Shown one piece after another: positions 25,295 to 26,918 of a stretch of 64,000 bases of DNA. How positions within the stretch are numbered: position 1 is the stretch's first letter; each line of letters starts with the position of its first letter. Source of the stretch: Candidatus Heimdallarchaeota archaeon (GTDB taxonomy: Archaea; Asgardarchaeota; Heimdallarchaeia; Heimdallarchaeales; Heimdallarchaeaceae). The position numbers were made by a program, and so were the translations under genes. The stretch spans positions 64,001-128,000 of the forward strand of contig JAHLWR010000007.1 in the NCBI GenBank assembly GCA_019057815.1, written 5' to 3'. The notes beneath the pieces were generated by a model, which worked only from the letters and a program-made list of their open reading frames with translations, made no database searches and was not told the DNA's origin.

Positions 25295-26918
25295 CTATTT
25301 ATTTCGTTTTTTAATATAAATTGAAACTGTTCCTAGAAATGCTAACATTAAGGGTATTGCAATGAAACCTAAACTTCCTTCATCTGTTGGTGTTGGAGGT
25401 ATCAATTCTTTAGCTGTAGTAGCTATATATTCCACTAAATCTTTAGTTTTTCCATGAAAACCTTCTCCAAAAAAACCTTGATTGGTAAAAACAATTAATC
25501 CCATGTTAGCTTTAGTTAACATATAAGCAGCACCAATCCAATTTCCCCATGTTAATCCGTGATAACCTTTGTTTAAGGCATTATTGTTCCAACCAAGACC
25601 ATAATTTTTATCAACAGTGGTATGCATTAGTTGTATAGTGGATTCTTCTAGAATTCTTACTGTATCGTAAACTCCATTGTTCATATGAGCTATGAGGAAT
25701 TTAGATAAATCTACAACAGTAGATAGTATTCTTACAGAACCAGGCCCAGGATAATCTTTGAAACTCTGTTCTTCATTTACTCCAGAGGCTGAATTCCATA
25801 TATATTGTTTAGCTAGTTGACTAAGTGTGTAGTTTGTATAAGTGAATTCAGTATTAGTCATTCCTAAAGGAGTAAAAATATTGTTCTTAACGTATTGTTC
25901 ATATGGTTCGCCGGATATTAGTTCAACTAAGAAAGCTATTAAGTCATAATAAAGCCAAGAAAATATACGAACTGTTCCTGGTACAAGATACAACCATGAG
26001 TCAATAGTATAATCTAAACCGTTCTCATTAAACACTTCGTAGAGGAAATCTGGAAACGGATAAAGATCATTATAAAAAACTTCGTGCTGTTCATCGGATG
26101 ATCCTATCCCTGCTCGTTGAGAAAGTAAATCATGAGTTATTTTTCCCACTTTACCCACTTAAGGGTAGTGGTAAATAATTTTGAGGACTCTTCCCAACCC
26201 AAGAACGTACAAGGTAGCGTTGCATCAAGCAGTAGCGTATGGGAGCTTCAAGCTCTGGGATTACACCTCCAACACACAGTGTTAGCGGAGGTGAGGGGGG
26301 TCATCTCCTCCCCGGGACTCATTACTGAAGACAGTGTTATTGAGAACCTTAGGTTCTCACTCCAGCTCCGGGTGTAAGCAGATGACTCTGCTTTGTCTCT
26401 AGCCATTGGCTTAAGACAGTACTAATACTAGACTTTCCTATAAAAAGCTAACAGAAATATGGGGAAAATGGGGAAAAACAACCATGTATTGTTATATCTA
26501 TGCTAGGATAGTAAGGATTCCTAAGTATCCAAGGTAGATGATCATTCACAGAATCGTTCATTTCAAATAGTCCGTCATCCATGAGCTGTAAAAGAGCTGT
26601 TGTAGCAACAACACCACTTATCATTGATATATAATAAACAATATCTGTCCCTGGTTGTTCACCATAACCTGTTGAATAATATTCTTCAGTTCCATTAATA
26701 GCACATAGAGCTAAGGATTCTACCTTAGCTGTATTCATAAGAACTTCAACTTGAGTATCAAATTCAGCATCGAATATATCTGTAGGAGCAATTGTAACTG
26801 CTTTAGAAGGTGAGAGTATTGTAGATAACATAAGGGTAGTCAAAATAAAACTGAAAAAGACAATTTTTCTTAAGTGTTTTTTCTTCATATTTTTCACCAT
26901 TAAATAATTTTTCACCAT
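25295..26918 (-). pseudogene. Beta-lactamase/serine-hydrolase-fold surface protein interrupted by a 352-nt insertion
   Basis: Removing 26135-26486 joins ...NPYYPSIDITIH to DLLSQRAGI... into one 423-aa frame with signal peptide and C-terminal TM + KKRNK. Confidence 0.85.
26135..26482. mobile_element. 348-bp non-coding MITE-like or intron-like structured insertion
   Basis: CATG at 26131-26134 and 26483-26486; ~23-nt imperfect TIRs; about 50% GC core with many hairpins. Confidence 0.8.

Follow-up and report, generated by a model that had tools for sequence, protein, structure and literature searches.

A probable omega-RNA-only miniature of a transposase-less TnpB insertion sequence in a Heimdallarchaeaceae genome

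Gene-less derivatives of insertion sequences that retain an omega RNA have been described in Geobacillus, where the PATEs of the ISGst IS605 elements need TnpB in trans (10.1101/2023.03.14.532601). In IS607 elements, a 2-bp core is accompanied by imperfect inverted repeats and 9-bp direct motifs in the ends, and the left tip tolerates sequence variation (PMC6188088); in CboIStron, the scaffold ends in the core and the target-adjacent motif (TAM), TGGG, can be set against the element's own end, TCGG (10.1101/2023.11.20.567912). A rearranged RuvC-II motif has been reported for the RIIr TnpBs (PMC10691335) as well as for TnpB2 and the Fanzors (PMC10530073). In the literature that we searched, Asgard TnpBs are mentioned only as groups associated with aCas1, and a description of a family with an AT core was not found.

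We analyzed an insert in a 64,000-nucleotide stretch (G000:C24:64001-128000) of the genome of a Heimdallarchaeaceae archaeon, hereinafter the window. Relatives at 80-90% protein identity carry the label Heimdallarchaeota. This insert is very probably an omega-RNA-only miniature (a ghost or PATE-like element) of a transposase-less Heimdallarchaeaceae TnpB insertion sequence, with a predicted guide function and putative serine-type movement. It splits a gene each half of which matches the Pfam Beta-lactamase family PF00144:

26487 to 26885, minus strand: 5' half of the interrupted PF00144 gene (beta-lactamase fold; membrane or secreted protein)
26134 to 26483, minus strand: gene-less element of 350 bp, reading G...C on this strand; deletion derivative of a 1.77-kb element carrying only tnpB
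25295 to 26131, minus strand: 3' half of the PF00144 gene

Copies of CATG are located at 26131-26134 and 26483-26486, with a spacing of 352 nt and 348 nt between them, and, as the original prediction had it, excision of 352 nt yields a stop-free frame of 423 aa in which ITIH is joined to DLLS. The compositional contrast noted at the time is also genuine, the core having a GC content of 49.6% (about 50% had been claimed) vs 31.8% for the 64-kb window, and the reported pairing of the ends corresponds to a terminal inverted repeat of 21 nt that is 81% complementary. The choice of CATG as the repeated unit proved incorrect: the empty sites of relatives indicate that AT alone is repeated upon insertion, the adjoining C and G being part of either the element ends or the target. 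For two H. aukensis insertions, the orthologous empty sites in H. endolithica each contain a single AT, in the contexts G-AT-A and G-AT-T. These contexts are not CATG, and duplication of 4 bp (CATG) or 3 bp (CAT) was rejected. Element and target have only AT in common and, given the single AT at the empty sites, the element spans 26134-26483. Elsewhere in the window, positions 27140-27230, inside a 76-aa remnant ORF, have many matches of 70-97% in related genomes and are probably the tail of a repeated surface-protein family.

BLAST comparison with the host genome revealed six short copies (354-357 bp; mutual identity 91.6-99.4%) and five long ones (1766-1778 bp) with the same ends, the identity of the shared ends being 88-92%. 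The long and short forms share approximately 290 bp at one end and approximately 65 bp at the other, and the long copies carry a single ORF; two of them, C30 and C26, have it frameshifted, and in the other three, C40, C39 and C10, it is intact, at ~490 aa. Thus, the search for longer versions with the same ends, proposed as a check of the original prediction, succeeded; the hope that they would identify the mover did not materialize as they encode TnpB. The suggestion of a bridge RNA, as in IS110 elements with their recombinase, is not supported either, given that the long copies encode TnpB only. The short form is a single internal deletion of the long element, with the following layout:

26460 to 26483, minus strand: left end, consisting of a variable tip of 4-5 nt and, next to it, a tandem pair of 9-bp motifs (26460-26477); matches the right end imperfectly, in inverted orientation
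26439 to 26446, minus strand: archaeal TATA-like box, the predicted tnpB promoter, located 20 nt ahead of the first RNA hairpin in the insert and, in a long copy, 30 nt ahead of the ATG of tnpB
26419 to 26429, minus strand: deletion junction, with ~1.42 kb of tnpB lost; identical in position in the six short copies and in the short copies of two other species
26132 to 26157, minus strand: right end, finishing in TC followed by AT (26132-26133), which repeats the core

Since one junction is common to all short copies, including those in the two other species, the short form goes back to a single event and subsequently spread as a short unit. As a result of the deletion, the predicted tnpB promoter directly adjoins the predicted omega-RNA scaffold. 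The original prediction had set against itself the case of a plain deletion derivative without covariation; a plain internal deletion of the longer tnpB element is indeed what was found, and its interior covaries as a TnpB omega-RNA scaffold. Two closed Heimdallarchaeum genomes contain 13-16 matches to a 45%-identical TnpB, together with a separate family of ~380-bp miniatures with a homologous RNA, of which one genome holds about 17 copies with identity of up to 99.7%. Fragments of 50-190 bp that consist of the right end only, without a left end, were also observed (L028, G000:C27:90264-90313; L124, L128, L134).

The product of the long copies is a 492-aa TnpB/Cas12f-like nuclease with a rearranged RuvC-II motif. 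Profile searches with the long ORF matched guided_TnpB (E 1.7e-20, which is below the curated cut-off) and Cas12f1-like TNB. Across 59 homologues, D235 (RuvC-I), D429 (RuvC-III) and E394 are invariant and G341 of RuvC-II is nearly so; E394 precedes the zinc finger, 53 residues past Gly341, which occupies the position of the RuvC-II Glu. The predicted structure (pLDDT 86) resembles those of Cas12f and TnpB, with Cas12f providing the best fold matches and a Fanzor2 ranking 17th. This TnpB clade was matched in 75 of the 301 Asgard genomes, chiefly in Heimdallarchaeaceae and Thorarchaeia, and was seen solely in records labelled as Asgard. One member (L181:968-3526) is an 852-aa protein encoded behind an IS607 TnpA, with a 257-aa N-terminal extension that is weakly similar to AbrB/MraZ. 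The thorarchaeal TnpBs of the clade (L198, L203, L205, L207, L210-L214) have no long 3' RNA; instead, an upstream GAGTGAAC hairpin is complementary to a downstream GTTCACTC motif, with a direct repeat on both sides. Judging from its sequence, this GAGTGAAC/GTTCACTC arrangement is possibly a split, tracr-like guide system.

The dense folding of the insert that had been described is upheld by comparison with shuffled sequences, the insert being more stable than 100 of 100 shuffles on either strand (z -3.9 on plus and -4.5 on minus). A single copy does not discriminate between the two strands. With 22 homologues, the consensus energy is -72.0 kcal/mol on the minus (tnpB-sense) strand vs -55.0 on the plus strand, and one-sided changes are kept as G-U on the minus strand only; hence, the structure of the core, whose wobbles had been taken to favour the plus strand, favours the minus strand. 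The predicted RNA comprises:

26132 to 26418, minus strand: predicted omega-RNA scaffold of ~287 nt
26317 to 26322 paired with 26132 to 26137, minus strand: terminal helix of the scaffold
26301 to 26310 paired with 26183 to 26195, minus strand: scaffold helix with a K-turn-like motif
26146 to 26171, minus strand: subterminal hairpin
26112 to 26131, minus strand: predicted guide, that is, the host DNA directly past the right end, proposed from the architecture of TnpB omega RNAs; in the empty allele, its match would lie behind ACAT

In the 64 named pairs, 98.5% of the cells are paired and five pairs show two-sided change, a result that none of 500 shuffles equalled and that compares with about 40% in slid controls, the control being one that ignores relatedness and the structure being taken from the same alignment. 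Compensation across subfamilies is stronger evidence than this test: the terminal helix, formed by an internal hexamer and the last six bases of the scaffold, is compensated in Heimdallarchaeum (AUGAGU/ACUCAU to AUGAUU/AAUCAU), and in a five-pair helix, three positions vary between subfamilies with the pairing nearly always kept. Thus, on the tnpB-sense strand, the scaffold shows both conservation and covariation. Conservation ends directly past the terminal AT, which places the start of the guide there; as judged from the sequence, the RNA of the insert has the predicted architecture of an omega RNA. The K-turn-like motif (window positions 26183-26195 and 26301-26310) contains tandem GA and is kept across RNA subfamilies; it is a possible L7Ae site. 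One motif that by eye had appeared hammerhead-like fits a putative K-turn-like internal loop better, and the hammerhead reading was dropped.

The host DNA next to the element follows a distinct rule. In the insert, it reads:

26484 to 26487, minus strand: left flank ACAT (V-C-AT), the host target including the AT core; VCAT is the predicted target-adjacent motif of the TnpB, a putative role

Immediately before the left AT, 55 of 59 sites have C and none has T, and TCAT accounts for none of the 55 xCAT left flanks vs a background of 36.5% (p=1.4e-11), in a manual tally of ends that were selected by pattern. At its right end, the element itself reads TCAT, and the base that follows, after removal of six false matches, is G in 44 cases, A in 21, C in 3 and T in 2. 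The only genomic match of the predicted guides of the miniatures is their own right junction, behind TCAT. The target flanks, in sum, read VCAT, with TCAT avoided. By analogy with CboIStron, the simplest reading is that VCAT would be a target motif, with self-protection at position -4; the bias could come from a preference of the mover instead of TnpB. The miniatures obey the VCAT rule too, which fits retention by TnpB in trans.

Taken as an omega-RNA-only miniature, the insert could persist as follows. The retained TATA box would drive transcription of the scaffold together with about 20 nt of flanking host DNA serving as the guide, and TnpB from the three intact long copies would load this RNA in trans. 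After precise excision, TnpB may cut the restored empty allele (VCAT followed by the guide match), and recombination from the filled chromosome would then restore the element, the filled allele being spared by the TCAT at its right junction. For movement, the likeliest route would be chemistry of the IS607 type, with a serine recombinase that is supplied in trans and acts across the 2-bp core, here AT.

Scanning the host genome for element ends beside a transposase gene yielded none, and an end-pattern search of the two closed Heimdallarchaeum genomes produced copies with tnpB only, ~380-bp miniatures and right-end-only fragments but no autonomous copy. IS607 TnpA scored above threshold in 11 of the 31 genomes of the family, with other left ends where inspected, and is absent from the two closed genomes that hold the nearly identical (up to 99.7%) miniatures; a distant member of the TnpB clade with other ends is located behind IS607 TnpA, as is a relative of a second AT-core lineage. 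Viral contigs contain distant TnpBs only and no exact right-end match; 26 matches to a 16-mer from the second lineage were found among them, probably by chance. Detected Cas1 genes are either CRISPR-linked or stand-alone with their own, different inverted repeats, none beside this TnpB; at the 20 Cas1 loci examined, retrieved by a PF01867 search that a very divergent aCas1 could escape, no TnpB of the clade adjoins Cas1. Among potential movers, an IS607-type TnpA outside these assemblies is quite possibly responsible; a DDE or undescribed enzyme is a rather unlikely candidate, a host serine recombinase a doubtful one, Y1 an improbable one, and aCas1 a very improbable one.

An intron-like or self-splicing element acting at the mRNA level is suggested by the pairing of the ends on the mRNA strand, which places the exon junctions side by side, and by the otherwise intact host frame. 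However, the Rfam scan of the insert gave chance-level matches only (E 2.8 or worse), in keeping with the failure of the original prediction to match group I, group II or BHB introns, and where a 3-4-3 bulge-helix-bulge was sought at the junctions, the minimum free energy fold of the mRNA strand is a continuous helix with a 1-nt bulge. Neither a ribozyme core, by covariance model, nor the sense-strand bias of group I, group II and IStron elements was found; about two miniatures within long ORFs are in the sense and about six in the antisense orientation, and several others are located at start codons or between genes. The pairing is merely that of inverted DNA ends, and the RNA 3' of tnpB accounts for all the structure. 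We regard splicing as exceedingly improbable, and the earlier suggestion of a ribozyme or of intron-like removal from RNA is not supported. Inverted ends could also mark a MITE mobilized by a cut-and-paste transposase of the DDE type, akin to TIR-borne Fanzors and DDE-associated TnpBs, in which case the terminal inverted repeats would be genuine and AT would be a 2-bp target duplication. In favour of this, the ends mostly start with G and finish with C, and the base past the right end is nearly always a purine. However, the outermost bases of DDE termini are not known to be freely variable, and here the outermost 4-5 bases of the left end differ from copy to copy without restriction; furthermore, the target bias is asymmetric, with C at -1 and T avoided. 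The DDE elements inspected in a PF01609 screen have other ends, and the amplified DDE family of the closed genomes additionally has longer duplications. Even though DDE-associated TnpBs have inverted ends (PMC10691335), this origin appears unlikely.

The single AT at the empty sites would be equally compatible with a PATE of an IS200/IS605 (Y1) element, with VCAT as the target, an element-encoded TCAT end and no duplication. A TCAN right end is typical of Y1 elements, and TCAT fits it; the right end carries a hairpin, and the host genome encodes two Y1 TnpAs, for which matching ends were not found. Against this possibility, the left-end hairpin is absent, the base past the right end is constrained, and a first TAM base with three-way degeneracy is hard to reconcile with guide pairing. 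Y1 TnpA was found in only 4 of 31 family genomes; the closed genome G004 lacks it, as do the 25 genomes that make up the largest genus. In H. endolithica, a miniature landed inside the sole Y1 IS200, separating its left end from tnpA (L288, G007:C1:925400-926000). Although the ISGst elements show family-specific target motifs with a shared mover (10.1101/2023.03.14.532601), we give a Y1 PATE little credence. A different proposal retains the miniature as described and has it moved by a family-specific short serine recombinase of the host that several unrelated TnpB elements exploit. This 240-280 aa protein, consisting of a catalytic domain and a short integrase-type recombinase domain, with Bxb1 as the best fold match, is encoded in 27 of 29 Heimdallarchaeaceae genomes and in none of the 272 other Asgard genomes searched, and no other serine recombinase was detected in either closed genome. 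A conserved ACCTT-N5/6-AAGGT site pair directly precedes its start codon (L047:1400-2208, L048, L049). Apart from the restriction to the family, the proposal draws on the AT core and the T/A-tract 5-10 bp inside the ends that are shared by unrelated TnpB lineages of the family, whose relatives in other Asgard families have other ends. Nevertheless, the recombinase's own upstream sites are unlike the element ends, its gene is fixed in a conserved operon, and co-occurrence in one family amounts to a single evolutionary event; moreover, the internal 9-bp motifs vary between element lineages, and the target flanks do not mirror the arms. Altogether, involvement of this recombinase is dubious. The preferred reading remains an omega-RNA-only miniature; it bears out the original prediction as far as a non-autonomous mobile element with a structured RNA is concerned, a guide being one of the RNA types then proposed.

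Other elements of the host genome share some of these features. Two further TnpB-only lineages (L332-L337; G000 C1, C19, C33, C46, C48) have AT-core inverted ends, TCAT right ends and T/A-tracts, with WTAT or YTAT as the left flank, depending on the lineage; one shows no BLAST similarity to the TnpB described here and the other is 27% identical to it. It is conceivable, albeit on balance unlikely, that at least three TnpB lineages and guide-only miniatures converged on AT-core ends and on a single non-classical mover (a domesticated serine recombinase or an undescribed transposase), each TnpB setting its own flank, VCAT, WTAT or YTAT. A separate element, with terminal inverted repeats of ~55 bp, contains a stand-alone broken Cas1 (L338, G000:C36:5630-7170); repeat-only derivatives of this type are numerous across the genome, including C24, the contig of the window, and the element has the appearance of an aCas1 transposon accompanied by MITEs derived from it. 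Another locus (L044, G000:C27:145850-148600) encodes IS607 TnpA and a 652-aa ORF without clear RuvC motifs; its family includes TnpA-deleted copies, right-end-only fragments and gene-less copies of ~370 bp with a structured interior of their own (C8:42394-42767, C1:35384-35757, C20:11813-12187 and C27:57825-58204).

The kind of element described here is already known; unusual are the rule of landing on an AT pair and the absence of a moving enzyme. Recently amplified copies in closed genomes without a matching transposase make the mover the central question: a host recombinase or a new enzyme, if truly involved, would represent a new class of partner for TnpB, and an IS607-type TnpA with an AT core would be a modest extension of a known family. 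The miniature defines, without further assumptions, the minimal cis sequence, the full guide-RNA scaffold and the promoter. Together with the flank statistics, it delineates a testable compact nuclease, with a 492-aa RuvC-rearranged TnpB, a ~287-nt scaffold and a predicted VCAT motif, from archaea that are close to eukaryotes.

Compared with known systems, the insert shares with the IS607 family (IS607, IS1535, ISC1926, CboIStron) the 2-bp core common to both junctions and the target, without a longer duplication, the imperfect inverted repeat, the short direct motifs, the tolerant left tip and the scaffold ending in the core; as in CboIStron, the TAM, here predicted, is one base off the element's own end (VCAT/TCAT). 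In contrast, the core of the IS607 family is GG and that of the insert is AT, with only two motifs per end and no group I intron, and the serine TnpA of that family, with its N-terminal HTH, is encoded in no copy with these ends. The PATEs of IS200/IS605 have hairpins at both ends, whereas the insert has only that at the right end. Thus, the insert falls outside both IS607 (no TnpA, AT core) and IS200/IS605 (no left hairpin). The RIIr TnpBs and Fanzors likewise have Gly in place of the RuvC-II Glu, a Glu before the zinc finger and an RNA far 3' of the ORF; in a comparison by motif and fold alone, the RuvC-I signature of the pro-Fanzors is DPG and that of this TnpB is DLG. The downstream GTTCACTCA motif reported for the aCas1-associated TnpBs of Cas1H-Asgard (PMC10691335) is present in the thorarchaeal members of this clade; the Heimdallarchaeaceae members differ by a longer, different RNA and AT-core ends, and no TnpB of the clade adjoins any of the 20 Cas1 loci examined. 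The ISGst PATEs have paired subterminal hairpins, whereas the insert has inverted pairs of 9-bp motifs around the AT core, and no Y1 partner was found; like the insert, these PATEs contain no protein gene, keep both ends and the omega RNA, and rely on TnpB and a transposase in trans.
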